Part shown: positions 18,304 to 47,734 of the stretch, one piece after another
Position numbering within the stretch: the stretch's first letter is position 1
How the letters are laid out: each line of letters opens with the position of its first letter
Virus record (IMG/VR): IMGVR_UViG_3300042691_053984
Span: 32,001-96,000 of that record
Source: a virus
DNA length: 64,000 nucleotides
Direction: 5' to 3' (one strand)
Translations under genes and position numbers: made by a program
Notes under the pieces: model-generated
The model's input: only the letters and a program-made list of their open reading frames with translations
Databases searched by the model: none
Told to the model about the DNA's origin: nothing

Positions 18304-18602
18304 TTCATTTCCTTCCCTATTTCATCTTGAAGCGGTTCAACCAACAGATTTGCAACCAACAAAACTGCATCACGTGACAATTGAATGTCGTCTAAAAGTT
18401 CTCTCACCACAGGTTCATCGCTTAATACTTCCAGTTTTGCCCTAATTGATGCACGATTGTAACACGCGTCAAGAACGTCAAGAGATTCTTCGATTTTATC
18501 AACAACATTTTCAAATCTCTCAGAAAATTCGAGGTTCTTTCTCACGCTTAACACGAGGAGAAATAACAAAATCGCGCAAAAAATAGACAAAAATATGATC
18601 AA
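18300..18602 (-). CDS. Hypothetical protein with N-terminal transmembrane helix
   Basis: MIIFLSIFCAILLFLLVLSV followed by a helical region. Confidence 0.6.
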   Translation of the reverse strand: MIIFLSIFCAILLFLLVLSVRKNLEFSERFENVVDKIEESLDVLDACYNRASIRAKLEVLSDEPVVRELLDDIQLSRDAVLLVANLLVEPLQDEIGKEMK

Positions 18603-19765
18603 ATCACTTCTCCCAAAATGGCATCGTACATACTACAAATAGACCCAAAGTTGTGTGTTGTACTTAGTTTCTCAGACAGGCTCATTGCCCACTGCTTGGG
18701 AATTGTGGGTGATTGTCTGAATTTCAACACTTTTTTCTTGAAGTCATCTTCATTTGGGAACGCCCACTGCATTCCGGGCAAAAATATCTTGTTGTCTATT
18801 CTAGAAGAATGCACATTTTCCATTTTGTAGTCAACGGAAATAAAGCGTCCTTGGTTCAAGAAGTCAAGATGTCCTGACCAGTTGGTTGCAATGACCGGAA
18901 GACCAGCAACAGACGCTTCCAAAAGCGGTAGTCCGTATCCTTCTCCTCGAGTCGCTGACACAAGAGCGTGGATCTTTGGGTGTTTATATAACGAGATCAC
19001 TTCGTCATCATTCATGTCCCCGTGAACCAAATAAACCTTTGGATATGGACCCTTTCTGACCTCTGACAACATTGTGTTAAAAATACTTAACACAGATTGT
19101 CTGTCAATCTTTGTATTCCGACTCGTGTTTGTCTTTACAAAGATTCCTACGTCTTTATCGTCCTTAAACGTTTCACATAGCCACTTGATTGAAAAAAACG
19201 TGTTCTTTCTATCGTTGTAAGGATTGTTTCCGGTCAATTGTCCAAAGACTAAAAAATTAAAGCCTGTTGGTACATCAAACAAATTATTGTCAACGTTCTC
19301 GTGATGATCCAGCCTTTCAAGATATGACTCTGGAACGACATGTATCTGCTTATTTGTTTTGCCCGTGGACTCAAAACATTTCTTTACATGTGTCGACGGT
19401 ACAATGACAGTATCCATCTTGTTTATGTCGTTCAGCCATGCCGGATTGCACCTATCTGTCTCTACGCCTGCAGTGAGACCTACGTTATGTCGGGCGATTT
19501 GAGTGTCCCATTCGTTTGGAAGTTGCAGCTGAACAGAAACATCGGCTGTACCCCTTAGATCGGTGGTCCTTTCCATCACCTTTCCAATAAATCCATTGTC
19601 ATGGTCAGGATTTATAAACCACGGAGTATCACCCCACGGCAATAACTGAAATTTCACGTCAATGTTGGGTTTTGATAAAAGCCACTTTGCCAACTGACGA
19701 CAGTGAACACCATAACCAGACTGCGTCAACACGGGGCCACGTAAGATCACACTTTTCTTCATCAT
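18599..19765 (-). CDS. Glycosyltransferase, GT-B (GT4-like)
   Basis: SGYGVH; RGEGYGLPLLEASVAGLPVIATNWSGH; ATGA-coupled start at 19765. Confidence 0.9.
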   Translation of the reverse strand: MMKKSVILRGPVLTQSGYGVHCRQLAKWLLSKPNIDVKFQLLPWGDTPWFINPDHDNGFIGKVMERTTDLRGTADVSVQLQLPNEWDTQIARHNVGLTAGVETDRCNPAWLNDINKMDTVIVPSTHVKKCFESTGKTNKQIHVVPESYLERLDHHENVDNNLFDVPTGFNFLVFGQLTGNNPYNDRKNTFFSIKWLCETFKDDKDVGIFVKTNTSRNTKIDRQSVLSIFNTMLSEVRKGPYPKVYLVHGDMNDDEVISLYKHPKIHALVSATRGEGYGLPLLEASVAGLPVIATNWSGHLDFLNQGRFISVDYKMENVHSSRIDNKIFLPGMQWAFPNEDDFKKKVLKFRQSPTIPKQWAMSLSEKLSTTHNFGSICSMYDAILGEVI

Positions 19766-21009
19766 ATCTCGGTTATCTCCCAACGCTTGTATGTCTGCTT
19801 CCACGTATCGATGCAGTTGGTCAAGGTTTCATCCCACCTTTTGATCATGTCGTTCATACCGTAATTTTTACGTGCGTGCTCCATTGCCTTCAGCCCGAGT
19901 TGCTCTCTATCTTCAGGACCTAATTCGTACATCTTCATGAAAGCATTTGCGACTGATTTGTGAGACACAAAGTCTTCATAAATGTATGGAACACTTTGGC
20001 TACCGGCTAAAGACCTCACTTCCGGCTCAAGGGCTACTCCGTATTCAAATCCGGTTTCGTGATCTTCCACCTGTCGCGTCAAACCACCTGTTTTAATTGC
20101 AATCACGGGAGTTCCACACATCTTTGCCTCAAGAACCCCAAGTCCAAATCCTTCGTTGCACGACCTATTGACAAGCACGTCAGATATGTTGTAAAGAGAT
20201 GACATTTCCTCAAACTCTATCCTTTCTTTCGAGAAGAGGACGTGTTTCTGTAGACCAAACAAGTTGACAACCTCGTGAAGATTTGGACCTTCATTATCAA
20301 AAGGTTCTGTATGCATGATCATGGTGGCATTCCTATGCCCATGTTTTGCCTCAAGTTCATCTAGGAAAATCTTCCACGAATTTATAATGTCACTCGCAAG
20401 TTTTCTTCTTGCATTTCTGCTCACGTACAGGCCGATGAAGTGATCCTTCTTTTCCTTCCCGAGGAGTTTGATTTTGAATTTTTCTTTTTCATCCCTGGGA
20501 AGAGGCTTGAATATCCATTCAGGAACTGAATGAGGTATGTAGTTGGTCTTGTCTGGAAATCTTTTGTGAACCATTTCATACGTCGGCCAGTTGATACAAT
20601 TGATCAGATCTGTACTTTCGTATAATACCCTGTTGAACTCCGGCCACGGAGGATTGTCCCAGAGGTGATTGTAAGTTATCGGGCAGATTTGGTGGATCTC
20701 ATCTTCCATCTGCCACACCCAAATAAAGAAACGTGGATCGGTGAACAATAACATTGCATCAGGTTTGATCTGTGCAAGCGCTTGCCTCAGCAGATTTCTG
20801 TCTCCGAAAGCATTTGTGGGCTTAATGATAAAATCGGGATTTACAACTTGTTCATCGTAGTTTGAATGCTTTATTGCACCACCAAAAACATAGAACTTGT
20901 ACTTGCCCGTAGAAATCAATCCGTTGATCAGCCATCTAGCCTGAGTTCCCACACCGCTAGCCGCCAAAGGATGATCACAAAGCATTAAAATTGTTTTCTT
21001 TTTTTCCAT
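19762..21009 (-). CDS. Glycosyltransferase, GT-B (GT4-like)
   Basis: SGVGTQAR; SRNARRK; NEGFGLGVLEAKMCGTPVIA. Confidence 0.9.
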   Translation of the reverse strand: MEKKKTILMLCDHPLAASGVGTQARWLINGLISTGKYKFYVFGGAIKHSNYDEQVVNPDFIIKPTNAFGDRNLLRQALAQIKPDAMLLFTDPRFFIWVWQMEDEIHQICPITYNHLWDNPPWPEFNRVLYESTDLINCINWPTYEMVHKRFPDKTNYIPHSVPEWIFKPLPRDEKEKFKIKLLGKEKKDHFIGLYVSRNARRKLASDIINSWKIFLDELEAKHGHRNATMIMHTEPFDNEGPNLHEVVNLFGLQKHVLFSKERIEFEEMSSLYNISDVLVNRSCNEGFGLGVLEAKMCGTPVIAIKTGGLTRQVEDHETGFEYGVALEPEVRSLAGSQSVPYIYEDFVSHKSVANAFMKMYELGPEDREQLGLKAMEHARKNYGMNDMIKRWDETLTNCIDTWKQTYKRWEITEI

Positions 21010-21028
21010 AAAAACCTATTTAGCAAAA

Positions 21029-21835
21029 TTATACGCAATGCTGTGTATTTTTATACTGACAATATGTGCAAGAGTCCCTGTTTTTTAGGGCAATTCCCTT
21101 TCTAACGGAAGAGATCATGCTATTAAGGGCCTTTAATGCACGTCCAGACGTTACGTCTCCAACGGAGACTTTGACCAATTCACAATGCGAGCCTCTCTTT
21201 GCGGATCTTTTAAGCAAGACAAATCCACACCTTACGTGTCGTGGGTCTATGTTTGTCTTGCCTGACCAAAAGTTTTTATAGAATATGAGTTGTTGCTGGA
21301 TTTTATGATCAGACTTTTTATCAGCCGTCCAACCCCACGCTGTGGTCTTCCAGTCTAATAACCAATATTGGTCTTCCCCTCTTTTCCCCTTTGTCTTGAT
21401 GATTCCATCAATAAATCCCTTGAATGCGTGATTCGGATGTTTTTCAATCGCCTCGTACAGGGCATGCTCTGCATCTACTGTTTCCCACGAAGGAAAATTA
21501 TCTTCAAGAAATTGTGGAATGTCAGCCAAAATGTCAATTGCCTCTCGCTTAAAAGAGTCAAGTAATTCAGTCTTGTATTCTGCAATTTCTTTGTTTTTTT
21601 CAAAAGACTCGATCAACAAATTGACCGCAACATCTGTGTTCATCACACGTGTTTTTAAAAAATCTTCGCATGAAGCGTGTACCGCGGTGCCAAAGTCCAA
21701 GATAGGTGAAGGAACAAAAAGGTCAATCTTATCGATGTGCCTCAGTTTGTGACGATAGGAACAGTCTTGCCACTCCTTCAATTCACTGAAACTTACGTGA
21801 GGTTTTCCTGTGGGAAGATTTTCAAAAGCGCTCAT
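21029..21835 (-). CDS. PD-(D/E)XK nuclease, AddB/RecB-like with probable Fe-S staple
   Basis: VSFSEL...C; FGTAVH; FKGFIDG...LLDWKT; QL.FY; C-terminal CTYCQYKNTQHC plus N-terminal Cys. Confidence 0.88.
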   Translation of the reverse strand: MSAFENLPTGKPHVSFSELKEWQDCSYRHKLRHIDKIDLFVPSPILDFGTAVHASCEDFLKTRVMNTDVAVNLLIESFEKNKEIAEYKTELLDSFKREAIDILADIPQFLEDNFPSWETVDAEHALYEAIEKHPNHAFKGFIDGIIKTKGKRGEDQYWLLDWKTTAWGWTADKKSDHKIQQQLIFYKNFWSGKTNIDPRHVRCGFVLLKRSAKRGSHCELVKVSVGDVTSGRALKALNSMISSVRKGIALKNRDSCTYCQYKNTQHCV

Positions 21836-21886
21836 TGTCAAAATTTAAACAAAAATAAAAAAAAGTTCAATCTAGTTAGATTGAAC
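21835..21886 (-). promoter_or_regulatory. Putative sigma-70-like promoter (TTGAAC-N17-TAAATT, leaderless) overlapped by a 10-bp inverted repeat
   Basis: GTTCAATCTA-gt-TAGATTGAAC at 21865-21886; -10 at 21847-21842 lies 6 nt before ATG 21835. The hairpin is followed by a U-tract on the minus strand, so it may also terminate the upstream operon. Confidence 0.5.
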
Positions 21887-21908
21887 CTTTAAGTTTAGTT
21901 GAAGTTAT

Positions 21909-22196
21909 TCAGCTTCTTTTTGAGACAGCACGCCCTAATTGTCTCTCCCAATCTTTGTCTTTTCTGACCTCCTTGTTCTTTTCCCAAGCGGCCTGCAGAA
22001 CGACTGGATTTACGTCTAAATTCTTAGAAAGCTTAATTAAAGCGTTGATATCTTTTGGAAAACAATTGTGGACAACAATGTTATTGCACACCCAAAACAA
22101 ATCATCATTTTTCTCATCAAGGGATGAAAGTTCTAAATTGTGAACTGTTCCGGTGTACGACAATCTTTCAATTTTTTCGATTTTTGCAGTTTTCAT
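21909..22196 (-). CDS. C-half of fractured UDP-glucose dehydrogenase: split-intein IntC (44 aa) + C-extein (51 aa)
   Basis: VHNLEL (block F) ... NNIVVHN|CFPKDINAL: intein HN terminus followed by the dehydrogenase catalytic Cys motif. Confidence 0.92.
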   Translation of the reverse strand: MKTAKIEKIERLSYTGTVHNLELSSLDEKNDDLFWVCNNIVVHNCFPKDINALIKLSKNLDVNPVVLQAAWEKNKEVRKDKDWERQLGRAVSKRS

Positions 22197-22900
22197 AAAA
22201 TGTTTTTTTCCTTGAGTTCATCATCAAAAACAAGTCTTATCTTCAACTCAGGATTAGACTTTTTTATATTTTCCCATTTTTTTTCATTTAAACTAAAGTG
22301 ATATTTATTTTTGATATCAATATATTCATCGGAATCAGGAAGGTAAAAATCTGGATAGTATGATTTCTCTGAACCGTTTTCATCCTTATACTTGATTCTT
22401 CCTTTGTGGGCTACAAAATTTACTCCTTCATTTTGTAGCCATCTTGCGTATGCAAGTTCCCATGTTCCCTGTAGCTTACAAATGGAGCCGTCAGATTTTT
22501 CAAAGTCAAACCATTTACACTTTCCTACTTTGACGCCATCAAACTTTCCTTCAGCCCAAGCCTTTTTTACAAGTTCACGTGTCATGTTTTTAAAATTTTC
22601 ATCTGACTTGAACCTTTCAGATCTTTTCTTCCCTGCTTTGACTGCAATCTCGGGATTTTTCATCGGATTTTTTTCACCTGAAATATATCCTTTTTCAAGG
22701 TGAGTCTTTGAAACCTTTTTTGCCCACTCAGGATGAGTTTCTTTTGTTCGATAAGTTTTTCCAAACGATGGATTTTTTTCTCCGGTTTGGAATAGGCTCA
22801 CACATTTTGTAGAACAAAATTTTCTTTTTCTTTCTTTGTAAGAAACTGTGAACAAAACTTGGCAGTTTTTACAACTTATGTCAATTTTTTTCATACCCAT
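22193..22900 (-). mobile_element. Free-standing homing-endonuclease-like gene (Zn finger + NUMOD3-like + PD-(D/E)XK) between split-intein halves
   Basis: CKNC...FCSTKC; GEKNPSFGK and GEKNPM; QGTWELAYARWL...YYPDFYLP...YIDIK. Confidence 0.8.
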
Positions 22901-22922
22901 AGGTATTGGCGGTCATTGCTTT

Positions 22923-23975
22923 TCATATGGTAAAAAGTTCATCTGTTTCTAAAATTTCAGATGCTTGAATGAGCAAAATTTGATTGTTTCTCTTGATTGG
23001 TAGGATATGACACGGTGTACAGGTTACTGACGTTTCAGTACCGTTGACAATGACTGTGAATTTGATCACTTCACCATGATAAGCACGAGCATGAATTTCT
23101 TCAACTCGCTTAGTGTTCGTTTCATTTAAAGTGTGATTTGAACTAATGACTGAATCATATGGTTTGATATCTTGAACTAAGACGCTGCCTTTTTCGGTTA
23201 GCACGGCGGTGTCACCGACAATACAATGCCCGCCGTACCCACGATCCCCATCGGGACCGGGAACTGACCAATGAGAATTTCCCAATCTTACATCATACTT
23301 TGCGTATTCAACGACTTTATCGTAGTCAATGTTTAGACCGTCCTTATCCAAAGCCTCACAAATTTGCGACATCTCGTTCGCAAATGAGACCTTTGTGGCT
23401 AAGAAACAATTAGTCACGTACTTCACCATTTCCGCAGTAGTTGAAGACGTTTTGATGAGCGGAACCTTGGGAAATGCTGTTTGAAACACTTGCTTTACCC
23501 TGTTGATCCAGGGCCGAGGTCCACCGAGGATTATTCGATTCTGGTTTCTCATGTCATCGAGGGCGTTTGCCTCTGTGAGGAACTCAGGATTGAAGACAAC
23601 CTTGAGACCGGTTCCTTCAAACTTTTTGTTCCAACTCTCTGTGGAACCGGGTGGTACTGTTGACTTTACTACCGCGATTCGTTCTCCGGGGATATCTGCC
23701 AGCTCCTGAAGCACACCACCCACGATGGACAGGTCGGCCTCTCCGTCCTCATACATGGGAGTGGGTAAACACACAAAGTAAACCCCTGAGAAATTATCTT
23801 GTGCCTCACAAGAGGCCACAAGATCACCCGTAGATGCTGCATTTCCAAGGCTGCCTTCGGCACACTTTCCCGCCTTGTCATATGTGTGAACCTTGAAACC
23901 TCTTTCCGAGAAAACAGTGGTGATTGAACCACCTACGAAACCTTGACCGATCACAGCGATAGAATTTTGAGACAT
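22923..23975 (-). CDS. ugd: N-half of fractured UDP-glucose/GDP-mannose dehydrogenase: N-extein (250 aa) + split-intein IntN (100 aa)
   Basis: IGQGFVGG, CLPTP, KSTVPPG, NPEFL, EMVKYVTNCFLATKVSFANE, PGPDG..GYGGH|CIVGDT..LT (block A), TCTPCH (block B); TGA at 22923. Confidence 0.92.
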   Translation of the reverse strand: MSQNSIAVIGQGFVGGSITTVFSERGFKVHTYDKAGKCAEGSLGNAASTGDLVASCEAQDNFSGVYFVCLPTPMYEDGEADLSIVGGVLQELADIPGERIAVVKSTVPPGSTESWNKKFEGTGLKVVFNPEFLTEANALDDMRNQNRIILGGPRPWINRVKQVFQTAFPKVPLIKTSSTTAEMVKYVTNCFLATKVSFANEMSQICEALDKDGLNIDYDKVVEYAKYDVRLGNSHWSVPGPDGDRGYGGHCIVGDTAVLTEKGSVLVQDIKPYDSVISSNHTLNETNTKRVEEIHARAYHGEVIKFTVIVNGTETSVTCTPCHILPIKRNNQILLIQASEILETDELFTI

Positions 23976-24005
23976 CACGACCACTCCTGATTTGTTAATC
24001 AACGT

Positions 24006-24034
24006 AATTTAAGACATTTAAATGTTCATGTGAA
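24006..24034 (-). promoter_or_regulatory. Putative sigma-70-like promoter upstream of split ugd
   Basis: TTCACA (24034-24029)-N17-TAAATT (24011-24006); AGGAG ribosome-binding site near 23985. Confidence 0.45.
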
Positions 24035-24976
24035 TCACGTTAATTCTACCCAGTCCAAAACCGTCGCCGTCTCCGGTCTGATTGGGTTCTTTAGCCAATT
24101 GCCGTTCTGATCGATTGGATTGTTGAAACCGATTGGTCTTGCGACTGCCTCAATTGAATTCGGGTAATTCAAATCATGGTCGCCTTCATTTATGTATTCG
24201 TAGTACTTCCACCCGGTTTCATCCTTTGCGGGCCAATATGCACCATAACGCTTGTTTCCTCTCACTCTGCCTTGCGTGCCTCTTATATCGGTGTATATTG
24301 CAACGGCCTGAGGAACGGCTGAAAGAGTGGCAACGTAATCTTTCATCTTACCCTCTGACATCAACTTCTTGACCTTGAATCGCATTTCATTCTCGGAATC
24401 CATTCCGCCTTCGTGATTTACGTTCTTTTCATGCCACGGTGCTATCTGTTCAATGACAGCTCTGCTGTAGATTGCATCTGCTGACGGACAGATCTTGTCG
24501 CGTGTCAGGTCGGCAAAAAACCTGTTCTTACCTGAGGCAGGTTGTCTTTCAGGTGAAAATTGCCTGATGTCATGGGATCTATGAGTGACCTGTCGTTGTG
24601 CGTCTAACGTGTAAGATCCCACGATGTCAACGTTCATTTCCAAAAATGACATCACGTCTTGCAACCAACCGTTCAAGACAAATTGCATGTCCCCCTGCAA
24701 CATGCAAATATAGTCCCCAGATGCCATCGAGACTATCTTATTTAATCCGATTGCAAACTCATTGGCGTAATTTCTCGTGCCTTGTCTGATCACCTTTACA
24801 CCTCTCTCTTCGAGGCTCAGAAGGTAATCTGACGTTCCATGCTCGATAGATGCATTATCGATGACGATCAATTCCTTGTTTTCGTAATCTTTGGTGGTGT
24901 CTATCAGCGACTCAAGGCAACTTTTAAGATAATAAAGCCTGTTGCAATTGACGATTCCAAAGGTGATCTTTTTCAA
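24035..24976 (-). CDS. Glycosyltransferase family 2
   Basis: ITFGIVNCNRL.YLKSCLESL; LIVIDNAS; likely TTG start overlapping the upstream TGA. Confidence 0.85.
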   Translation of the reverse strand: MKKITFGIVNCNRLYYLKSCLESLIDTTKDYENKELIVIDNASIEHGTSDYLLSLEERGVKVIRQGTRNYANEFAIGLNKIVSMASGDYICMLQGDMQFVLNGWLQDVMSFLEMNVDIVGSYTLDAQRQVTHRSHDIRQFSPERQPASGKNRFFADLTRDKICPSADAIYSRAVIEQIAPWHEKNVNHEGGMDSENEMRFKVKKLMSEGKMKDYVATLSAVPQAVAIYTDIRGTQGRVRGNKRYGAYWPAKDETGWKYYEYINEGDHDLNYPNSIEAVARPIGFNNPIDQNGNWLKNPIRPETATVLDWVELT

Positions 24977-26013
24977 TTTGTCCTCACTGAGTCGATTATT
25001 TCTGCAACGATTGTCGGGAGTGTCTTTGTGATATTCCAACTAGGATAGTGGGATCGAAACTTGGACATGTCACTTATGTAACATATGTGATCTCCGATAC
25101 GCGCTTTGTCCGACACATTAAAGTCTAGTTTATGACCCAAGCTACTCAGGATGCCTATTGTTTCGAGTATCGATGCGTTATTCTGCACTCCGCCGCCGAT
25201 GTTGTAGACTTCGCCCGGGCGTGGGTTTTTCATAAACTCATGGAATGCCGTGCAAACGTCGTATGAATGTATCTGGTCTCTGACCTGCTTTCCTTTGTGT
25301 CCATAAATTGTGTATGGGGTGCCTTTTACTGCACACTTTACGATGTACGACAAGAATCCATGTAATTCAACACCTGCATGCTGTGGGCCTGTGAGGCAGC
25401 CTCCTCTGAACACGCCTACGGGCATACCAAAGTATCGTGCATACTCCTGTGCCAGAAGATCAGCAGATGTCTTTGACACCCCAAATAGAGAGTGTGTCGT
25501 CTGGTCTATTGACATCGATTCGTTGATACCATTGCAATACTTTTCGTCTGCGTAATCGAATCTTGATTCTTTTTCGATCAAGTTCAAACGATTCGGAGTA
25601 TCACCATACACTTTATTGGTGCTGACGTGTACAAACGGAGATTCCGGAGTTGTTAGCCTAGCTGACTCTAGTACGTTTAGGGTACCCACTGCATTCGTGG
25701 CAAAGTCATCATGTGGAATTTTGGCCGCAAGATCGTGTGACGGTTGTGCAGCTGCGTGGACGATGTAGTCCGGCTTATGAATTCCAAATATCTCGAGGAT
25801 TTTTTTGAAATCCCTGATGTCTGAGTCTTCGTGAGTGTAATGAGGGGTTTTGCACAGCTCACTCGTCACAGATGACGTATCGCCGCCAATACCAAAAAAT
25901 GTTTTTCTCATGTTGTTGTCTATACCGACAACACGATGTCCTGCCGCAAGAAAGAATCTTGCGACTTCAGATCCAATCAAACCTGATGCGCCTGTGATTA
26001 AGATTGTTTTCAT
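24973..26013 (-). CDS. NAD-dependent epimerase, CDP-paratose 2-epimerase (tyvelose synthase)-like
   Basis: ITGASGLIG; HAAAQPSHD; STNKVYGD; FRGGCLTGP.H.GVELHGFLSY. Confidence 0.8.
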   Translation of the reverse strand: MKTILITGASGLIGSEVARFFLAAGHRVVGIDNNMRKTFFGIGGDTSSVTSELCKTPHYTHEDSDIRDFKKILEIFGIHKPDYIVHAAAQPSHDLAAKIPHDDFATNAVGTLNVLESARLTTPESPFVHVSTNKVYGDTPNRLNLIEKESRFDYADEKYCNGINESMSIDQTTHSLFGVSKTSADLLAQEYARYFGMPVGVFRGGCLTGPQHAGVELHGFLSYIVKCAVKGTPYTIYGHKGKQVRDQIHSYDVCTAFHEFMKNPRPGEVYNIGGGVQNNASILETIGILSSLGHKLDFNVSDKARIGDHICYISDMSKFRSHYPSWNITKTLPTIVAEIIDSVRTN

Positions 26014-26022
26014 ATCTTTGGT

Positions 26023-26679
26023 TTAAATCTTTGTCAGGTACGATGTGATGCTGGCGTTAAACGGCCTTTTTGGATTATTAGAAATAATTTTTTTGCTCCA
26101 GATTATTTCTACTTTGTCTACTGAACTCTTTATGTCTTCAAAAGAGGTCGCAGAGATGTACGAGCTCTGAAAACGCTCTTTTTGCAGCAAAGAAATAAAT
26201 AAATCATACGTTGTTGGTTGGTTCTCTACGTTATACTCCGGGTAGAATTCCTTGATACTCGTGTGCATATCTTCCATGATGAAGATTCCGCCTTTTTTTA
26301 GGTTTGGCCACAAAACCTCAAGCGCATTTTGCTGCTGTCTCATTGTGTGACCGCCGTCATCTATGATCACGTCAAATTCTCCCAATTTTTCTGCAAAAGA
26401 TTTCAAGGATTCTTTGCTATCACAGTCAACAATGTGCATGGTGACGTTGTTTAGATCTGACAAGTTGATCTCATTTATGTCAACGCAATGTATCTCAGCG
26501 TTTGGAAAATATTCCCTCCACATCCTGATGCTTGCACCCTTGAAGACCCCGATTTCAAGAATTTTAATGTGAGAGTCTCTTAGGTGAGATAAAATTTTTT
26601 CATAATGTGGAAGATAGAAATGTGTGACTTTGTCAGTTTCAAACTTTTTACCAATACTCAGCAGATCATTGTTTGACAT
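26023..26679 (-). CDS. Class I SAM-dependent methyltransferase (sugar O-methyltransferase-like)
   Basis: TDK...Y..HY; ILEIGV..GAS; FDVIIDDGGH; LKKGGIFIMED. Confidence 0.88.
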   Translation of the reverse strand: MSNNDLLSIGKKFETDKVTHFYLPHYEKILSHLRDSHIKILEIGVFKGASIRMWREYFPNAEIHCVDINEINLSDLNNVTMHIVDCDSKESLKSFAEKLGEFDVIIDDGGHTMRQQQNALEVLWPNLKKGGIFIMEDMHTSIKEFYPEYNVENQPTTYDLFISLLQKERFQSSYISATSFEDIKSSVDKVEIIWSKKIISNNPKRPFNASITSYLTKI

Positions 26680-26704
26680 AAGCTTTCCTTTAGTTGCCGT
26701 AGGA

Positions 26705-29123: not shown

Positions 29124-29130
29124 AAAGAAT

Positions 29131-36780: not shown

Positions 36781-36782
36781 TT

Positions 36783-40583: not shown

Positions 40584-41311
40584 TTTAGATCCTTTAATCT
40601 TTTTTCGTACAAATCATGAAGCACTTTGTGGTGCTCTTTTGACGCATACTTTCTTAGGTACTGATTTTCAGTTATGAAGTTGTATATCAATCTGATTGAT
40701 CCCCTTGGATGAACGTCTGGGATCACTCCGTGAAGCATGGAAGTATCAAACAACATCACCTGATCATTATTACTGAACAGTATTTCATTTTCAATTGAAT
40801 TTATCAGATTGTTGTCAAAAGCTTGATTATTTGCATAGCACCTGTGAGAAGAACGTATGAATTTTAGTCTTGGCTCAGGATGATCTACCATAGGATAAAA
40901 GATGATTTTATGTGCAGGAGGTGTGTTTCCAGCCCAGTGATTTATTCCGTTTTGATGGGTGTCTCTGTGCCAGTCTTGGTACGATCGCCCTGGTGCTGTT
41001 TTTACGACCTGAATATGTGAAAGAGTCAATCTCTTACAGGTGTATAACTCTAGCAAATTATAGAGTTTGTTGTCAAACAAAAGATCAAGGAAGCAATTAT
41101 CGTAACTGAAGACATCCGGTCTTAGATGGAACGAATTTTCCCGTTGCTCCCACGAAAAATTGCCTTTAATCTTGTCAAGAAAAAGCAATTCATTCAGCGA
41201 ATGAACAACTTCATCTTTGCTTTTTCCTCCTATGTTTAGCAGAGCAAAACCATCATGGTAATATTTTCCTGCTTCATCGAGTTCATCAGACGTGATTGGA
41301 GATAACTTCAT
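40580..41311 (-). CDS. PhyH-like 2OG-Fe(II) dioxygenase
   Basis: QDWHRD; LFDTSMLHG; R.RLI. Confidence 0.8.
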   Translation of the reverse strand: MKLSPITSDELDEAGKYYHDGFALLNIGGKSKDEVVHSLNELLFLDKIKGNFSWEQRENSFHLRPDVFSYDNCFLDLLFDNKLYNLLELYTCKRLTLSHIQVVKTAPGRSYQDWHRDTHQNGINHWAGNTPPAHKIIFYPMVDHPEPRLKFIRSSHRCYANNQAFDNNLINSIENEILFSNNDQVMLFDTSMLHGVIPDVHPRGSIRLIYNFITENQYLRKYASKEHHKVLHDLYEKRLKDLK

Positions 41312-42234
41312 TCTATTTCTCTCACATAATTAACGTAATGATTCATACACGTTTCCATTGAGACGTCTACGTCGTACTTTAGGTCATTTTTGTGTGGAAG
41401 CCTATCAACTTGGCACAAATCTATTTTAGGCGGATTTGTGTAGTCCACAAGGTCAAATTTGTATTCATCTTGCTCTTTTAAAACGACACCAAAGCTTTTT
41501 ACAAGTTCTTTTGTTCCACCGTGCTCAGAACAAATAACCGGTGTCCTTTGTGACAGGCACTCTACAACTGTGTTGGGGCAATGATCTAACCATGCAAGGT
41601 GGATCATCCAATCAGCAGCAGAAAACACCTCTAGACACACTTCGTGAGGCTGAGAGCCTGTATAAAATATGTGGGGGTCTGCAACCATGGTTGGATTGTT
41701 CCCCATCACGATCAACGCTGCGGAGTCATATGAATACCTAATGCGTTTAAAGAACTCAATGTTGTCAAGCAGTCTTTTTTGAGGATGCCAATTTGCTGAG
41801 CACACGAATAACGCCTGATATTGCTGTCGAATTTGTTCCAAAGAGGACACCTTGAATTCTTTAATTTCTGGTGCGTTTATTCCGTTATGGATTACCTTGC
41901 CTGATCGTGGTTGTCCCCACCATTTTGTCACCATGTGCCTGTCAAAATCTGATTGCCAGATCACTCCATCAGCGCGTTGATACAGGCTTTTGATGGCAAC
42001 ATTCTTTGTCTCAAATTCGTGAGGAGAAAACCAAATGCCGTCTAGTCTTTGAATGACCCTTTTAGCAAGAGGTCTACCAGAAGGCTCAATAAAAACGATG
42101 GAAACATCTGAATTAGAACCGTCCTCTAGTTCAATGTCATGTCCGGTTTCAAGCAACGCCATTGCAAGTCTTTTTCCAAAAGAGTTAGGCCCCGAGGATG
42201 ATGACATATCGACGTTGTCAAGGTGGATCTTCAT
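41308..42234 (-). CDS. Glycosyltransferase GT4-like
   Basis: SGPNSF; RLDG; IHNG; WRP-like ANWHPQKR; DHCPNTVVECL...PVI. Confidence 0.85.
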   Translation of the reverse strand: MKIHLDNVDMSSSSGPNSFGKRLAMALLETGHDIELEDGSNSDVSIVFIEPSGRPLAKRVIQRLDGIWFSPHEFETKNVAIKSLYQRADGVIWQSDFDRHMVTKWWGQPRSGKVIHNGINAPEIKEFKVSSLEQIRQQYQALFVCSANWHPQKRLLDNIEFFKRIRYSYDSAALIVMGNNPTMVADPHIFYTGSQPHEVCLEVFSAADWMIHLAWLDHCPNTVVECLSQRTPVICSEHGGTKELVKSFGVVLKEQDEYKFDLVDYTNPPKIDLCQVDRLPHKNDLKYDVDVSMETCMNHYVNYVREIE

Positions 42235-42593
42235 GATCTCTTTTTTACCTCTGCGATGAAAGGAACTGCGAATGGCGTCTTGTTGAACATCACTGCCATC
42301 AACGCAACTTCCTTAGTGTTGATGTTGGACAACTGTGCCCTTTCGGTGAAGATGTTAGGATCCAACTCCTGACCACCGTTGATCGTGACTGAATCATAGT
42401 ACATCTGGGCGATGTAATTGACTGATTCGTTAGACAGGGGCGTAGACGTTTGCTCAAAAACCTTTGACAAAGAGTAGAATATATCCTGATATATTTCAGA
42501 GCACACTTGCGAATTAAATTTTTCGCCCTTTCTTTTGGAAAGATTGTGAACTAAAAGACCTGTAATGGTTTCATTCAAATTGTTTTGCGTCAT
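42231..42593 (-). CDS. Hypothetical protein
   Basis: ORF track; overlaps both neighbours by ATGA. Confidence 0.6.
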   Translation of the reverse strand: MTQNNLNETITGLLVHNLSKRKGEKFNSQVCSEIYQDIFYSLSKVFEQTSTPLSNESVNYIAQMYYDSVTINGGQELDPNIFTERAQLSNINTKEVALMAVMFNKTPFAVPFIAEVKKRS

Positions 42594-43345
42594 TTAACAT
42601 ATCCCCTGTGTCTTAAAAAGACGGCTTCGTCCTTCTGAAATTTTGCATCCGGTGTTTGGTATGTTTCCGGTACGTCATCTATCGTGTAGTGATACATCAC
42701 CCTTGGGATGAAGCCTTTCATTTTTGCGTTGTGAAGCGCAGGAAGATATATCGCCTGATCTCCGGCCCTTTTTATGTAACTTCCGTCTTCACCCCTGAAG
42801 TTTTCGTCCTTTACGTCGTTCAACAATCTCTTGCGAAATGTCTTGAGGTGACTAGAAACCCATGGGTGCTCATAAGGATTGGAATCATTAGACATGGGAC
42901 CACTGATGTTTTTATCAGTGAAACCCCACCTATGCGCCGTCCATAACGCATCAGCGTTTGTCTGTTGATAAAATGAATTCAACATTGACAGTGCGTCAAC
43001 CTCAGTCAACCAATCGTCTGCGTCTATCCTACACACAATGTCGTCATCTTTACACTTTGAGATACCAAACAACACATTTGACACTTCCCACTGTTTACCA
43101 CGAATGGGATCATCAGAGTTCCAAAAAACCTGTATCTTTGATGGGTCACGATCCAGCGATTGTAGCAGCACCTGATGTGCTGCGATAATTGATCGGCACT
43201 TTTCTCTTTCAAGAGGTGACGAGACGTCGTCTATCAGGATCACCTGCCAGTCATCGTAAGACTGCGATACGATCGATGATAACATCTGTCCAACGTACGC
43301 AGACGCATTGTACATAGGAGCGACAAAAACAAATCTATTCTTCAT
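42590..43345 (-). CDS. Glycosyltransferase family 2
   Basis: FVAPMYNA; LIDDVS; RIDADDWL; SHLKTFR; AGDQA. Confidence 0.9.
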   Translation of the reverse strand: MKNRFVFVAPMYNASAYVGQMLSSIVSQSYDDWQVILIDDVSSPLEREKCRSIIAAHQVLLQSLDRDPSKIQVFWNSDDPIRGKQWEVSNVLFGISKCKDDDIVCRIDADDWLTEVDALSMLNSFYQQTNADALWTAHRWGFTDKNISGPMSNDSNPYEHPWVSSHLKTFRKRLLNDVKDENFRGEDGSYIKRAGDQAIYLPALHNAKMKGFIPRVMYHYTIDDVPETYQTPDAKFQKDEAVFLRHRGYVK

Positions 43346-44280
43346 CTTACGTCCGTCACAAATGATCTGATGGTCTCTTCGAGGGCGGACGAAAACTCCC
43401 TGTATTCGTGTCCCACGAGAGAATTGCTTTTCTCAGAAGAGATCCAATATTTCTTATCGTGACCTTTTCTATCTGTGACAAAATCTATCACATCATCAAT
43501 TTTAAGTTGTGATCCTGTGATTGTATTGTATCCCCTGATTATCTCACGGATGGTATCAAGATTGGACATTGAGTGACCCGAGGAAATGTTGTATGTGTTT
43601 CCATCGGCCCAATTATCGAGAAGCTTCCTGATGATTGAGACGGTGTCCTTTACGTAGGTCCATTCTCTTTCCTGCGAACCATCTCCGTACACGGGAAATT
43701 TCTTTCCGGATGAAATCAGCTGTAACAGTTTTGGAATTAACTTTTCCGGAAACTGCCTCGGACCAAAGTTGTTTGACGGGCGTACAATGAATGCCTTCAC
43801 TTTGTGGGTGTTCCTGTACGCAAAGATCATCATGTCTGCCGCAGCTTTTGTCGCCGAGTAGGGATTCATTGGATGAAGCCGATCATACTCTGTGAAGGGT
43901 CTTGTGTCCGCCGGGCCGTATACTTCATCGGTGGATACATGACACAATGGCACCGAGTGTTCAACACATACATCTAAAACAGACGTTGTGCCCAATACGT
44001 TAGAAAAGACAAACTGTCTTGACGCCTTGATCGAATTGTCAACGTGTGTCTCAGCGGCAAAATTGACGATCACGTCAGGGCTAAAACTTTTCACAACCTC
44101 TGATAGTCTTTTGGTGTCGCAGATATCAAACGTTTCAAGACGATGAATTCTGTTAAGTGATTTGATGTCTGAGGCATAGGTCATCTTATCGACAACTACG
44201 ACCTCATCGCCGACTGAGGTGAAATGATCATATGCATGGCCGCCGATGAAACCGGCACCACCCGTGAGTAGGATCTTCAT
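43342..44280 (-). CDS. rmlB: dTDP-glucose 4,6-dehydratase
   Basis: LTGGAGFIG; DKMTYA; NFAAETHVDNS; HVSTDEVYG; NPYSATKA; NNFGP.QFPEKLIP. Confidence 0.92.
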   Translation of the reverse strand: MKILLTGGAGFIGGHAYDHFTSVGDEVVVVDKMTYASDIKSLNRIHRLETFDICDTKRLSEVVKSFSPDVIVNFAAETHVDNSIKASRQFVFSNVLGTTSVLDVCVEHSVPLCHVSTDEVYGPADTRPFTEYDRLHPMNPYSATKAAADMMIFAYRNTHKVKAFIVRPSNNFGPRQFPEKLIPKLLQLISSGKKFPVYGDGSQEREWTYVKDTVSIIRKLLDNWADGNTYNISSGHSMSNLDTIREIIRGYNTITGSQLKIDDVIDFVTDRKGHDKKYWISSEKSNSLVGHEYREFSSALEETIRSFVTDVR

Positions 44281-44283
44281 AGT

Positions 44284-45105
44284 TCAACTCCCGTAGTTCT
44301 GGATACACCAGTTAAGCGCGGACTCTGCGTTACGAGGCAGGTAGCCTGTGGACGCAAGTTTTGAAAGATCCAGCAACGTATTGACACGCCTGACCTCAAG
44401 CGTCTTGACGTAATCTTCATAGTTTACGCTGTCCACAATTAGTGCAGGATTTAGTGACCTTACTCTCAAGGCAATGTCATATGGACTCATGAAACCGCTG
44501 TTTGCAACATTATAGATTCCATAGTGCTCACCGGAAATCAGGTGGTCAATCATATCTCCCATATCTTCAATACATGTCAACGAGTTTTTTGACGTGATGA
44601 ACTTGCCTGATGTCATTGACACGAATTTAGTGATCATGTTGGTGGGATAAGGTAACTTTGAGATCAATTGACGAGGTCTCACGATGATAGTTTTTCTGTG
44701 GTTCAACCTGACTATCGAACTATCTGCCTCTGCTTTTGTCTTGGTGTACCATGCAGCCGGCGTTGGTTCATCGTCTTCGGTGTATAACTTTTCCGTCTCG
44801 CCTCCGTCAAAAATGCACCCGCTGCTCACGTGCACGAGGCGTAGATCAAGTTCCTTGCAAACTTTTGCTACGTTGATTGCACCGATAACGTTGACGTCAT
44901 ACGCTTCAATCTTATTGGTCTCGCACCACTCAAGGTTTATCTTTGAGACCGTGTTGATAACGGTGACATCGTCTCCTGAAAATTCCCTGAGTCGATTCAT
45001 TACATTGTTAAAGTCTTTGATTTCAATGTCAGAATGTGACAAAACGACATCAGATTCTTTCCTGATCACTGTTGCAACTTTTCCTGCCCCTACAATCACC
45101 CTCAT
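44284..45105 (-). CDS. RmlD-fold enzyme resembling bifunctional 3,5-epimerase/4-reductase (UER1/NRS-ER type)
   Basis: NLEWCE; SSGCIF; WYTKTK; RPRQLIS; PTNMITK; NSLT; GIYNVAN; RRVNTLLD..KL. Confidence 0.75.
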   Translation of the reverse strand: MRVIVGAGKVATVIRKESDVVLSHSDIEIKDFNNVMNRLREFSGDDVTVINTVSKINLEWCETNKIEAYDVNVIGAINVAKVCKELDLRLVHVSSGCIFDGGETEKLYTEDDEPTPAAWYTKTKAEADSSIVRLNHRKTIIVRPRQLISKLPYPTNMITKFVSMTSGKFITSKNSLTCIEDMGDMIDHLISGEHYGIYNVANSGFMSPYDIALRVRSLNPALIVDSVNYEDYVKTLEVRRVNTLLDLSKLASTGYLPRNAESALNWCIQNYGS

Positions 45106-45821
45106 TTTTCACCCCACATCATAAGATTTGCCTTTTTGTACGAATCATGAGTCCCGGCGTCGACCCACCCACACGTCAATTCAACCGAAGAACCTGCGTC
45201 ATTTTTAACTAGATGAGAATTAACGTCGCTGATTTCGTACTCTCCTCGCGCCGAAGGCTTCAAGCGATTGATCACTCCAAAGACAGACGGTGAGTAACAA
45301 TAAAGACCGACTACTGCGTGATCGCTACTAGGAACAGCGGGTTTCTCTGCGATGTCAACGATCTTTCCTTCGTGGAATGTTGGAACGCCAAATCTTTCCG
45401 GGTCTGGTACACGTTTTGTAAATAGCTTAAACGTGTCATCAGACTCTGCGAATCTTTTCACGTGTGATGCGACTAAAGGTTGATCGTCAAAGATGTTGTC
45501 GCCGAGGATGACTGCAAACTTATCTCCTCCGACAAAGTCCTTACACAACTTCAAGGCTGCAGCGATTCCATTGGCGGAATCTTGGACCCTGTATGTCAAA
45601 GAACAGTTGTATTCCGCACCAGAACCCAGCATTGCAATCACGTGTCCCATGTGATCCGGTCCTGTGACAAGCATTACCTCTTTCACACCTGCCATTGTCA
45701 ACACATTGAGACAGTGATTTATGATCGGAAGTCCACCGACGGGAAGAAGACACTTGTTGGTCACCTTTGTGAGAGGCATGAGCCTTGATCCGGTGCCTCC
45801 GGCAAGAATGATTCCTTTCAT
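45102..45821 (-). CDS. rmlA: Glucose-1-phosphate thymidylyltransferase (short form)
   Basis: GIILAGGTGSRL.PLT...NKCLLPV; LGDNIF; PERFGV; EKP; ARGEYEISD; WVDAGT. Confidence 0.92.
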   Translation of the reverse strand: MKGIILAGGTGSRLMPLTKVTNKCLLPVGGLPIINHCLNVLTMAGVKEVMLVTGPDHMGHVIAMLGSGAEYNCSLTYRVQDSANGIAAALKLCKDFVGGDKFAVILGDNIFDDQPLVASHVKRFAESDDTFKLFTKRVPDPERFGVPTFHEGKIVDIAEKPAVPSSDHAVVGLYCYSPSVFGVINRLKPSARGEYEISDVNSHLVKNDAGSSVELTCGWVDAGTHDSYKKANLMMWGEK

Positions 45822-47734
45822 CTTTCACCTCTTGTCATTACCAGTGGTTGTTGCCTAAACACCACAATGTGTGGTGTACGTGTGAAACCATCCCACTTTC
45901 GGTGCCAAATCCAGCCACCGGTCTTTTCAGCGAGAGATCTTGCCCGTTCTGTCAGCATCTCATCAGTCACCTGAGACCAAGCAGCGTCAAACATCATATT
46001 GTTTTGAGCGGTGTCAGAAGTGTCCTTACCCCACAGACCATTCCAGTGATTTTGCCAGTAATCTCTGTATAACTTCATCTTTCTTGGAAGATCATACCAA
46101 GAATAGTGAAACACACAAGGGATGTTCGTTGCAACCTGATTGAACCAGTCTTGGTACTGCAATAATGCCTCGGTTGATCCTTGCATTGCCGCAATCCTAA
46201 CTTGCTCTGCGTCGTGAGAATAGAAGCTTAAGTGAGGAATTCTTTCTCCTGACTTTGCATCAATCATGTCGCAACCGTCGGTACCCTCTTTGGCCATTTG
46301 ACGGCCCTCAGAATCAATTGTCCTTAATTCAAGTGGTATTCCATGGGTGATATTTTTCTTATTCCTAGACAACCTCCATTTCCATGGTTGGATGTCAACT
46401 CTTGTCTTGTCAGGGCCACCCCAGTACTCTATCACTGGCAACGAGATCAGATCAACCTCCTTTGGGAAGGACTGACAAAGAATTATCACTTTTTCACAGT
46501 CTTCTTCGTGAACCACTTCATCTGAGTCCATTTGCCAACAAAAATTACCAGTGCACATTGCACGAGCTTCTGCTTTTTGCATTCCGTCGTAGACAGCGTG
46601 ACGTGGATTATCCCAATCTCTTGGTACTTGCTTGATTTTTACCCGTGGGTCTTTTTGTGAAAGCGAAACCAGAAGTTCCCATGTGCCATCGGTGGAGCCT
46701 CCGTCAACAATGCAAACTTCTTCACAGAATCCCAACATCGATTCGATCGATTGTTGAAATGGATATTGTTGTTTTATGGCGTTGTACGTTGTAGTGTACC
46801 CAGAGACGCTAGGCTTGAAGTTCATGATCTTTCCAATCGAGCTCCAAAACATTTGTCTTGATGACACAAGATAATCGTTGATGGAGTCTAGATCGTCAGT
46901 ATTAAACCATTCTTCGTCTTTATGTTGAACATTTTCATTTAGTTGTAACTTACAACCTAACAATTTTGCTTCAATCACCATTCTTGGGCAGGTGTCTTTG
47001 CCTGCAGGCAGATAAACAAAGCCTTCCGCCGCTGACAATTTTGCAATTACTTGATCATACGGAACGTTCCACACAACTTCAAATTGCTTATTGTTTTCTT
47101 CACACCACTGCTTGGCTGAATCAAACCCTTTGACCCAAGAATTAGATCCCAACACAATCCAACCACTTCTTTCTTGGGGAGGAATTTTATCACGTAAGAA
47201 CCTCATCATACCAAGTGTAGACTGGCTAAAAACGCTAGAAAGCACGATGTTATCTTTTTCACCCAAGAAAGGAAATAACTTCAAGTAATGAAGCTTCTGT
47301 CCCTCCGACATCCAGTAGATGGATTGGGCTCCGAAAAAGAAAGACGATACAATCTTTCCATTCATGTTTTCGCTACAATCACAGTCACTTCCAGTCTCTG
47401 ATTTATGTTTCTCTGGAGATCTGAATCTACAGTACTTATAGTCATATTCTAAAATTGAATATTTCAAGTTCCCAATTATGCTGGGGATTAACTCTGCATT
47501 AAGAGAGGCAAAATTTCCAAAGATCCAAAATCTGTCAAACCCTTGCTTCAATAAATCTAACGTCACAAATTTTGACTTGATTTTGAAGACGTTAAAGGGA
47601 CTTGATTCAATCAAAGCCTGAGTTGTCAACTCAGCGCCTCCGACGTAATCTTCGACAAATAAATCAGCAACCAGGATTATCTGGGCATCTTGAGGGATCT
47701 TTGCGCCAAACTGAAATACTGGATTTGAGAACAT
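45818..47734 (-). CDS. Two-domain glycosyltransferase (GT-B-like N-half fused to GT2 C-half)
   Basis: GGAELT; DTCPRMVIEAKLLGC; then SGYTTTYN, IVDGGSTDGT, QMDSDEV. Confidence 0.85.
   Translation of the reverse strand: MFSNPVFQFGAKIPQDAQIILVADLFVEDYVGGAELTTQALIESSPFNVFKIKSKFVTLDLLKQGFDRFWIFGNFASLNAELIPSIIGNLKYSILEYDYKYCRFRSPEKHKSETGSDCDCSENMNGKIVSSFFFGAQSIYWMSEGQKLHYLKLFPFLGEKDNIVLSSVFSQSTLGMMRFLRDKIPPQERSGWIVLGSNSWVKGFDSAKQWCEENNKQFEVVWNVPYDQVIAKLSAAEGFVYLPAGKDTCPRMVIEAKLLGCKLQLNENVQHKDEEWFNTDDLDSINDYLVSSRQMFWSSIGKIMNFKPSVSGYTTTYNAIKQQYPFQQSIESMLGFCEEVCIVDGGSTDGTWELLVSLSQKDPRVKIKQVPRDWDNPRHAVYDGMQKAEARAMCTGNFCWQMDSDEVVHEEDCEKVIILCQSFPKEVDLISLPVIEYWGGPDKTRVDIQPWKWRLSRNKKNITHGIPLELRTIDSEGRQMAKEGTDGCDMIDAKSGERIPHLSFYSHDAEQVRIAAMQGSTEALLQYQDWFNQVATNIPCVFHYSWYDLPRKMKLYRDYWQNHWNGLWGKDTSDTAQNNMMFDAAWSQVTDEMLTERARSLAEKTGGWIWHRKWDGFTRTPHIVVFRQQPLVMTRGER

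Follow-up and report, generated by a model that had tools for sequence, protein, structure and literature searches.

Comparative sequence analysis of a predicted 29-kb glycan assembly island with a conserved glycosyltransferase scaffold and a putative exchangeable cassette in uncultured T4-like jumbo phages

We analyzed a stretch of 64,000 nucleotides, referred to here as the window, which corresponds to bases 32001-96000 of a single linear viral contig of 132,858 bp from IMG/VR (IMGVR_UViG_3300042691_053984; ~40% complete according to CheckV). The window contains a glycan assembly island of ~29 kb, or 22% of the contig, consisting of 34 minus-strand open reading frames (ORFs) of at least 95 amino acids (aa) within positions 18599-47788. 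No credible plus-strand gene was found in this interval among ORFs of that size. The initial annotation of the window had described a ~29-kb co-oriented island of about 33 genes, many of them joined by overlaps, and this description was borne out: 14 junctions have a 4-nt overlap (ATGA type), one has a 1-nt overlap, and the genes of one pair abut. Its end coordinate, 47734, likewise corresponds to an ATG that is preceded by an AAGAGG Shine-Dalgarno sequence and is probably the true start of the first gene. Related phages keep the locus and swap its middle part, so that its product is probably a sugar coat of the virion that varies between them. The layout, from the 5′ end of the island to the genes that follow its 3′ end, is as follows.

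47735-47912, minus strand: promoter region of the island, divergent from a plus-strand gene at 47913
37715-43345, minus strand: semi-conserved glycosyltransferase block
24035-37718, minus strand: cassette-specific variable block of 17 genes, with a low, mosaic GC content (30-46%)
21861-21890, minus strand: intrinsic-terminator-like hairpin (13-bp stem and T-run), the strongest of the region
18599-21841, minus strand: core block (exonuclease, GT-b, and GT-a, present in 57, 69, and 75 of 80 related loci, respectively)
18300-18602, minus strand: 100-aa protein between GT-a and the late sigma factor, with an N-terminal transmembrane helix and an SDEPVV motif, kept in relatives
17485-18303, minus strand: gp55-like late sigma factor (phrog_234)
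13095-14933, minus strand: gp6-like baseplate wedge protein

Searches of Pfam, NCBIfam, the PDB, and the ESM Atlas, combined with paralogy and predicted folds, identified 12 glycosyltransferase (GT) domains in 11 proteins, eight of the GT-B/GT4-like type and four of the GT-A/GT2 type, in agreement with an earlier inventory of GT4-like, GT2, and fused enzymes.

45818-47734, minus strand: fused GT-B+GT-A enzyme (anchor GT), conserved, at the 5′ end of the island
42590-43345, minus strand: GT2, semi-conserved block
41308-42234, minus strand: GT4, semi-conserved block
38647-39555, minus strand: GT4-like (weak), semi-conserved block
37715-38650, minus strand: GT4, semi-conserved block
36783-37718, minus strand: GT-B, variable block
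33183-33974, minus strand: GT2, variable block
27385-28359, minus strand: GT-B paralogue, called only through its similarity to 36783-37718
24035-25039, minus strand: GT2, variable block
19762-21009, minus strand: GT-b, a GT4 enzyme, core block
18599-19804, minus strand: GT-a, a GT4 enzyme, core block

In the anchor GT, Pfam assigned a GT2 domain to residues 344-453 of a 656-aa ORF model, and the GT-A/GT2 C-terminal half contains a DSDE motif. Residues 33-324 of the AlphaFold model (pLDDT 80) form a compact GT-B fold (VIA Z of 17 to GT4 enzymes). The T4 enzyme AGT matched this N-terminal domain with a Z of 15.5, level with dozens of GT4 enzymes, indicating that the GT-B fold is not specific. 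The GT-A domain is nearest to the peptide S-glycosyltransferases ThuS and SunS (VIA Z of 16.6, root mean square deviation of 2.5 over 181 aa), and SunS was also its best Foldseek match (1e-9); TarS, TarP, RmlT, and capsule polymerases rank just below. A tblastn search of phage records with the anchor GT gave no match. In GT-a and GT-b, at the opposite end of the island, clade alignments revealed an invariant EX7E motif. Among solved structures, the chlorovirus GT B736L came closest to the profile of the GT-b family (3.4e-11, both domains covered). The relatives of the GT4 enzymes also include small-molecule GTs, namely, BshA, MshA, and the tetrahydrobiopterin GT.

Related loci, at least 80 of them on IMG/VR contigs of up to 369 kb, were found via the late sigma factor and compared with an orthologue cutoff of at least 35% identity. 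The order exonuclease, GT-b, GT-a, 100-aa transmembrane protein, sigma factor, and baseplate is near universal in these loci, and GT-b is 62 to 70% identical clade-wide, above the conservation of the sigma factor itself. Orthologues of the anchor GT (54 to 65% identity) are present in 14 further IMG/VR contigs and in the complete relative G004. Wherever a single contig holds both anchors, they are 18 to 29 kb apart. In the interval between them, five of the seven genes of the semi-conserved block have orthologues in the relatives G001 to G003. The 17 genes of the variable block have no orthologue in G001 to G004, and a few of them recur in the loci L036, L075, and L084; no orthologue of the cassette-specific rml trio (43342-45821) was found in G001 to G004 either. 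Overall, only 4 to 11 of the 34 island ORFs are shared with each of these four relatives. A Pfam census of the 122 ORFs of their islands again recovered glycan genes, in a different set: ~15 GT1/GT4 and 9 GT2 enzymes, a GDP-mannose 4,6-dehydratase, a CapD-type dehydratase, DegT aminotransferases, and O-methyltransferases. The initial annotation had asked whether relatives carry variable islands at this locus, and the conserved anchors flanking a partly swapped interior of 18 to 29 kb answer that question. As judged from gene content, the locus consists of a conserved GT scaffold and an exchangeable cassette. The sharing of so few ORFs would be the diversification pattern of a surface-exposed glycan, which favors a product displayed on the virion.

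Flavobacterium phage immuto and Microcystis phage Mel-JY01 also have the nuclease-GT-GT order; in phage RM378, GT-b follows a PolI-like gene and precedes an unassigned ORF. A "moraphage" lineage has four core GT orthogroups (PMC12619734), and this lineage and the clade of the window may be the same or neighboring. As a separate observation, the glycan islands of G001 to G003 embed genes absent from the island of the window. These encode NAD salvage functions (NAMPT, an NMNAT-like cytidylyltransferase, and a NUDIX protein), as well as a tRNA-binding domain protein, PTH2, and a dual-specificity phosphatase.

The source of the contig is predicted to be an uncultured, lytic, T4-like jumbo phage. 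The gp55-like and gp6-like genes lie 3′ of the island on the same strand, and the other flank encodes a prohead protease, a helicase ~30% identical to jumbo-phage helicases, and PhoH. None of 50,697 phage records was matched in megablast searches that used 12 kb and 25 kb of the region as queries. The GC content of the contig is 47 to 61% over the first 40 kb and 33 to 46% thereafter. This jump, the bacterial-looking gene content, and the GT4 relatives that include BshA, MshA, and the tetrahydrobiopterin GT could be taken to mean that cellular DNA was misassembled onto a phage contig, or that the product of the enzymes is a small-molecule glycoconjugate, soluble and with no relation to the virion. 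We consider either explanation very improbable. Both ends of the island and five or six genes inside it show synteny across many independent viral contigs that come from different samples, and the junctions are gene dense, with overlapping stop and start codons. G004 holds homologues of genes from both sides of the GC change, and the GC content of the relatives also swings, from 0.37 to 0.50 inside one genome, reaching 0.58 when genomes are compared with each other. A cellular chimera, which the initial annotation had named as a risk, is unlikely for these reasons and in view of the synteny with relatives, including G004.

The other ORFs of the island encode sugar-supply enzymes, decorating enzymes, and proteins without an assigned function.

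45102-45821, minus strand: RmlA (Pfam/NCBIfam)
44284-45105, minus strand: RmlD-like protein of the bifunctional 3,5-epimerase/4-reductase type (PDB search)
43342-44280, minus strand: RmlB (Pfam/NCBIfam)
42231-42593, minus strand: conserved 120-aa protein, no ESM Atlas match
40580-41311, minus strand: PhyH-like 2-oxoglutarate (2OG) oxygenase (ESM Atlas score 0.97, TM 0.80)
39555-40583, minus strand: GFO/IDH/MocA oxidoreductase
36049-36780, 35249-36052, 34548-35291, 32590-33186, 29891-30778, and 26705-27517, minus strand: ORFs of the variable block without a family call
33965-34546, minus strand: FkbM methyltransferase
31609-32589, minus strand: GDP-mannose 3,5-epimerase (GME; 3e-91 to the plant enzyme 2c59)
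30775-31593, minus strand: methyltransferase
29131-29943, minus strand: second and divergent UGDH-like protein
28356-29123, minus strand: OGFOD1/prolyl-hydroxylase-like 2OG oxygenase (PDB search)
26023-26733, minus strand: methyltransferase
24973-26013, minus strand: CDP-tyvelose-2-epimerase-like short-chain dehydrogenase/reductase (SDR; 3.5e-35)
22923-24002 and 21909-22196, minus strand: UDP-glucose/nucleoside diphosphate (NDP)-sugar 6-dehydrogenase (UGDH), split into 359-aa and 95-aa genes
22193-22900, minus strand: endonuclease-like ORF (Phage_endo_I/DUF7487) splitting UGDH
21029-21841, minus strand: PD-(D/E)XK exonuclease, core block

Family and structure searches recovered all of the enzymes of this type listed in the initial annotation (RmlA and RmlB, an epimerase-reductase, GME-like and tyvelose-epimerase-like proteins, two 6-dehydrogenases, and an oxidoreductase), together with the two 2OG oxygenases, one prolyl-hydroxylase-like (28356-29123) and the other PhyH-like (40580-41311). 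Of the four methyltransferases that had been proposed, only three could be verified. Seven island ORFs had no match in Pfam or PHROGs. The RmlD-like protein matched the Arabidopsis 3,5-epimerase/4-reductase (4qqr, 1e-20) better than RmlD (1vl0, 1e-13) or Mimivirus L780 (7jid, 1e-12), and no island ORF had a Pfam match to the cupin RmlC 3,5-epimerase (PF00908, dTDP_sugar_isom). The rml set of the island is unlike that of bacterial RmlABCD, which requires separate RmlC and RmlD enzymes. The island is predicted to encode a two-step, RmlC-free route to NDP-L-rhamnose of the plant and Mimivirus type. The nucleotide carrier may be dTDP, because an RmlA-type nucleotidyltransferase is present. The sugars supplied would be NDP-L-rhamnose, GDP-L-galactose or L-gulose (GME), a uronic acid (UGDH), and a C2-epimerized hexose. 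Homologues of GME that are 67 to 74% identical occur in many phyla; use of this enzyme to deduce a donor or host gave no signal and was abandoned. The UGDH gene is uninterrupted in ~30 relatives. At the break, ~100 aa and ~44 aa have no counterpart in relatives, and these intein-like parts are consistent with a split intein. Three ORFs of the interval are not glycan genes, with these parts counted beside the PD-(D/E)XK exonuclease and the endonuclease-like ORF.

Sequences resembling a sigma-70-type promoter precede the anchor gene: TTGACT (47788-47783), an 18-nt spacer, and AAGAAT (47764-47759). The pattern TGAACA-N16-18-TA(G/C)AAT occurs at the equivalent place in at least 8 of 14 relatives. 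The hairpin at 21861-21890 separates the variable transcription unit from a core unit comprising the exonuclease, the two GTs, and the sigma factor. The T4 late-promoter motif TATAAATA has no copy in the window. From these signals, the island is probably a sigma-70-driven unit of its own, expressed early or in the middle of infection and outside the late operon. It adjoins the late sigma and baseplate genes and is co-oriented with them, yet it has its own sigma-70-like promoter and terminator. The initial annotation had been correct in placing the island directly upstream of these late genes on the same strand; any argument from this location for a link to late genes is weakened by the promoter and the terminator. 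Two AT-rich motifs, WTATTTAR and TTTAAATW, were examined as promoters and rejected, since their mild intergenic enrichment was judged to be an effect of base composition. The motif TAAGTA is intergenic for 19 of 32 copies in G003 and 18 of 46 copies in G004 (genomes with 8 to 9% noncoding DNA), and for 2 of 26 copies in the contig studied here. In relatives, the hexamer also precedes the sigma-70-like promoter of the anchor gene by ~50 nt. It could act there as a phage-specific regulatory or promoter element and is not conserved in the phage of the window. No late promoter was identified among these motifs.

Kyte-Doolittle scans did not reveal any transmembrane protein in the island, and no multi-pass protein (at least three hydrophobic segments) is encoded by the 123 ORFs of the 133-kb contig. 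Since this contig is ~40% complete, the scans were extended to the complete relatives G003 and G004 (298 and 369 kb), on which the test for Wzx, Wzy, and exporters rests. The ORFs of these two genomes with at least three hydrophobic segments comprised two of ~140 aa (4 to 5 segments), two tape-measure-like giants, and four of 169 to 399 aa (3 to 4 segments). No ORF for Wzx, Wzy, an ABC permease, a polyprenyl-phosphate transferase, or an oligosaccharyltransferase (PglB/PglL/STT3-like) was found in the contig, G003, or G004, and none of the 34 island ORFs had a Pfam match to an initiating polyprenyl-phosphate sugar transferase of the WecA/WbaP type. Thus, in comparison with a Wzx/Wzy- or ABC-dependent O-antigen or capsule locus, the NDP-sugar and GT2/GT4 cluster is present, whereas the initiating transferase and the flippase, polymerase, or exporter are absent. 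A soluble, stepwise, cytoplasmic pathway is supported by the absence of lipid-carrier, flippase, polymerase, and ABC membrane proteins from the contig and from two complete relatives. The initial annotation had reported no exporter, initiating transferase, or multi-transmembrane protein and had proposed a soluble pathway; both points hold, the second more strongly now that two complete genomes are included. The 100-aa protein encoded at 18300-18602 is the sole membrane-anchored product adjoining the island.

Soluble phage GTs could also act on the host, by extending or replacing a surface glycan (lipopolysaccharide [LPS] core, ABC-type O-antigen, capsule, teichoic acid, or S-layer glycan) at the cytoplasmic face. 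The primed lipid carrier and exporter would be those of the host, and such remodeling would serve to keep off superinfecting phages or grazers while the latent period lasts. GT4 and GT2 enzymes, rml genes, GME, UGDH, and FkbM and O-methyltransferases are what O-antigen and capsule loci of bacteria usually contain, and GME homologues with 67 to 74% identity are widespread in bacteria. Terminal methylation is a chain-terminating signal in ABC-type O-antigen synthesis, which also counts in favor of an envelope target. The sigma-70-type promoter at the head of the island looks early, and the small conserved membrane-anchored protein adjoins GT-a. Comparable clusters in large cyanomyoviruses were read by their authors as envelope remodeling (13 GTs and 22 cell wall genes in S-SCSM2R; PMC12801897). 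We nonetheless regard a host envelope target as unlikely. The contig and the two complete relatives have no initiating transferase, no flippase or polymerase, and no ligase or ABC component, the phage is lytic and T4-like, with no integrase seen among the annotated genes, and the prolyl-hydroxylase-like enzyme has no role in such a scheme. The clade spans 33 to 58% GC, and hence very different hosts, but keeps the same seven core GTs, a constancy that fits poorly with a host-specific acceptor or exporter.

DNA is a third potential substrate: some of the GTs, chiefly the GT-b/GT-a pair, might glycosylate a hydroxymethyl- or hydroxy-pyrimidine in the phage genome, as in T4, RB69/DLP3, and MT/TET-GT clusters, with the island supplying the nucleotide sugars. 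Known phage DNA glycosylation systems (T4 α-GT and β-GT; RB69/DLP3 arabinosyl-5hoC; MT/5mYOX-GT) resemble the locus in three respects. First, the phage DNA GTs known so far are GT4-like GT-B enzymes. Second, the GT pair lies between a nuclease and a gp55-like sigma factor, and T4 α-gt lies between gene 47 and gene 55; a neighborhood of replication genes was also observed for the GT pair in Mel-JY01 and for GT-b in RM378. Third, all five near-complete relatives (G001 to G005) carry a thymidylate synthase (TS) homologue whose closest solved relative is the CMP 5-hydroxymethylase MilA (1e-41, versus 1e-23 for ThyA), and the 5hodCMP synthases of RB69 and DLP3 share this top match (PMC13326640). 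The homologue is always beside a conserved NDP-sugar SDR, and G004 adds a NodU/CmcH-type carbamoyltransferase (G004:C1:179396-183085). The MilA-like TS-SDR pair suggests a hypermodified pyrimidine in the DNA of the clade, and its presence in all five near-complete relatives makes DNA glycosylation by part of the system possible. The case for DNA is in this respect better than the initial annotation had allowed.

A DNA role, mainly for the GT-b/GT-a pair, nonetheless appears improbable. Phage immuto, which has a homologous nuclease-GT-GT module, provides a counterexample: liquid chromatography-mass spectrometry of its DNA revealed canonical, unmodified dA, dC, and dT and a nonsugar deazaguanine, fdPreQ1 (bioRxiv 10.1101/2023.04.13.536721). 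There is no detectable homology to T4 α-GT, with hhalign probabilities of 0.3% for the GT-b profile and 0.1% for the GT-a profile, and tblastn of GT-b against the 50,697 phage records retrieved no T-even, RB69, or DLP3 GT. The 133-kb contig contains no TS, TET/JBP, or C5-methyltransferase, the Tet_JBP part of this result being uninformative since its control matched nothing. The TS-SDR pair of the relatives is unlinked to the island, at a distance of 110 to 150 kb. Finally, the scale and chemistry of the island exceed those of base adducts: described DNA glycans are mono- to trisaccharides, and 12 GT domains, O-methyltransferases, 6-deoxy and uronic sugars, and a prolyl hydroxylase fit poorly with a nucleobase adduct.

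Three giant minus-strand ORFs (2054, 2147, and 1252 aa; 55 to 58% GC), located at 1-5027 of the window and 16484-26718 of the contig, probably encode fibers or receptor-binding proteins and account for much of the GC jump of the contig. The 2054-aa ORF is made of DUF5122/Rax2 beta-propeller repeats. The tripeptide (S/T)GS occurs 47 times in the fiber proteins, versus 7.8 expected, within the DUF5122 repeats. It was considered as a glycosylation sequon and dropped as evidence, because the consensus of the DUF5122 repeat explains the enrichment. No collagen-like GXY run was found in the contig.

A virion or other phage protein is, in our view, the best reading of the acceptor, and we adopt it tentatively. 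Hints of a protein-directed activity come from the OGFOD1/prolyl-hydroxylase-like oxygenase, the SunS/ThuS-like GT-A domain, and the match of GT-b to B736L. Immuto points in the same direction, since it combines a homologous nuclease-GT-GT module and sugar cluster with canonical dA, dC, and dT. The RmlC-free rhamnose route of the plant and Mimivirus type also favors a protein acceptor, as does the combination of a core with variable parts, which parallels the capsid glycans of chloroviruses. Several observations weigh against this assignment. The acceptor role is deduced from sequence, and the hits to protein-modifying GTs are within the noise of the hits to teichoic acid, capsule, and small-molecule GTs. 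Soluble GTs are equally typical of ABC-dependent O-antigen or capsule synthesis and of LPS-core synthesis with host carriers. The MilA-like TS homologue and SDR of the relatives hint at sugar-modified DNA in the clade, the (S/T)GS enrichment gives the assignment no help, and the contig is ~40% complete. The first gene has a sigma-70-like promoter and not a gp55-type late promoter; with this promoter and the terminator, coexpression of the island with the structural genes is not supported by the sequence. Early or middle expression would be compatible with all three acceptors, virion protein, host envelope, and DNA, since chlorovirus GTs and T4 α-gt are likewise early.

With a virion protein as the acceptor, the island would be transcribed after infection from the sigma-70-type promoter, and its enzymes would assemble a glycan step by step in the cytoplasm, with an acceptor made by the phage taking the place of undecaprenyl phosphate. 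The GTs conserved in the clade (the fused anchor, four further GTs, and GT-b/GT-a) would build a common core, to which the cassette enzymes would add lineage-specific, partly O-methylated 6-deoxy and L-sugars. The likeliest acceptor would be a virion surface protein, such as the giant beta-propeller fibers, other fibers, or a capsid decoration protein, and proline hydroxylation may make some of the attachment sites. A variable sugar coat of this kind would alter the adsorption, stability, or recognition of the particle. A bolder proposal, which we regard as possible though doubtful, is that the phages of this clade possess a "serotype locus" for the virion, comparable to the O-antigen locus of a bacterium. 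About seven conserved soluble GTs would make a core in the cytoplasm directly on proteins of the virion, perhaps at hydroxyproline residues, and a horizontally exchanged cassette of genes for sugar supply, methylation, and extra GTs would diversify the glycan from lineage to lineage.

Phage-encoded glycan clusters and viral self-glycosylation are already known, and several systems provide points of comparison. The capsid glycans of chloroviruses are made by soluble, early-expressed, multidomain GTs and methyltransferases and contain O-methyl-rhamnose (PMC9614988). Chlorovirus PBCV-1 (A064R, A061L, A075L, and A111/114R; B736L in NY-2A) and the island share virus-encoded GTs that are mostly soluble and cytoplasmic and that do not use a host secretory or lipid-carrier route. 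Further similarities are multidomain GTs, methyltransferases, for O-methylated rhamnose in the chlorovirus, early expression, which is predicted for the island, and a conserved glycan core with strain-specific decorations. In contrast to the chlorovirus machinery, the island belongs to a tailed phage with a bacterial host, its genes form one 29-kb block instead of being scattered, orthology does not extend beyond the level of the GT4 superfamily, and the island is known from its genes alone. The Mimivirus fibril clusters (R141/L780 for UDP-L-rhamnose, L136 for viosamine, and the collagen hydroxylase-GT L230) also make rhamnose with a 4,6-dehydratase and a single epimerase-reductase, are clade specific and lead to different fibril glycans, and tie a protein hydroxylase to glycosylation. 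The island differs from them by its RmlA-type nucleotidyltransferase, by a hydroxylase that is OGFOD1/prolyl 4-hydroxylase-like and not a lysyl hydroxylase-GT fusion, and by a contig devoid of collagen-like repeats.

Among phages, according to the citation of Freeman et al. 2023 in PMC12619734, GTs of mycobacteriophages attach glycans to subunits of the capsid and the tail tube, and the virion is shielded by these glycans. The phages concerned, Che8, Corndog, and Myrna, resemble the phage of the window in encoding their own GTs, for which virion glycosylation is a prediction in the island. These 50- to 150-kb actinophages have one to four GTs within a late structural operon, whereas the island has 11 GT proteins, complete sugar-nucleotide pathways, and a sigma-70-type promoter in a T4-like jumbo phage. 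The cyanomyovirus clusters (PMC12801897) similarly combine many GTs and NDP-sugar epimerases without exporters in lytic T4-like phages. In immuto, the orthologous PD-(D/E)XK nuclease, GT-b, and GT-a are followed by GT2, aminotransferase, and methyltransferase genes. Unlike these clusters, the island has two conserved anchors and a swap site across more than 80 relatives, is larger and contiguous, and has a sugar set that includes L-rhamnose made by a UER1-type route, GME, and a split UGDH. The new elements are therefore the contiguous 29-kb block, the two-anchor, swap-cassette organization in more than 80 uncultured jumbo phages, the fused GT-B+GT-A anchor, a rhamnose route of the eukaryote and giant-virus type in a phage, and the link to a protein hydroxylase.

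If the virion "serotype locus" exists, it would be the first autonomous glycosylation machinery of a prokaryotic virus at the scale found in chloroviruses and mimiviruses. If the virion is coated with the product, the diversity of glycans would be a major determinant, hitherto unmeasured, of host range, particle stability, and recognition in environmental jumbo phages, and self-sufficient viral glycosylation would reach phages from the giant eukaryotic viruses. If the target is DNA or the host envelope, the comparative framework still defines a new, large, and modular phage glycan system. The locus is suited to experiments, since its enzymes are soluble and immuto is a cultured carrier of the core module. 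The conservation of the anchors makes the cassettes easy to find and compare in metagenomes. The RmlC-free rhamnose route, the phage GME, and the fused GT-B+GT-A enzyme are of practical interest.

On the other side of the promoter region of the island, positions 48494-49726 (plus strand) encode a protein of 410 aa that partially matches a GroEL-like PHROG and is kept beside the anchor GT in G003 and G004.

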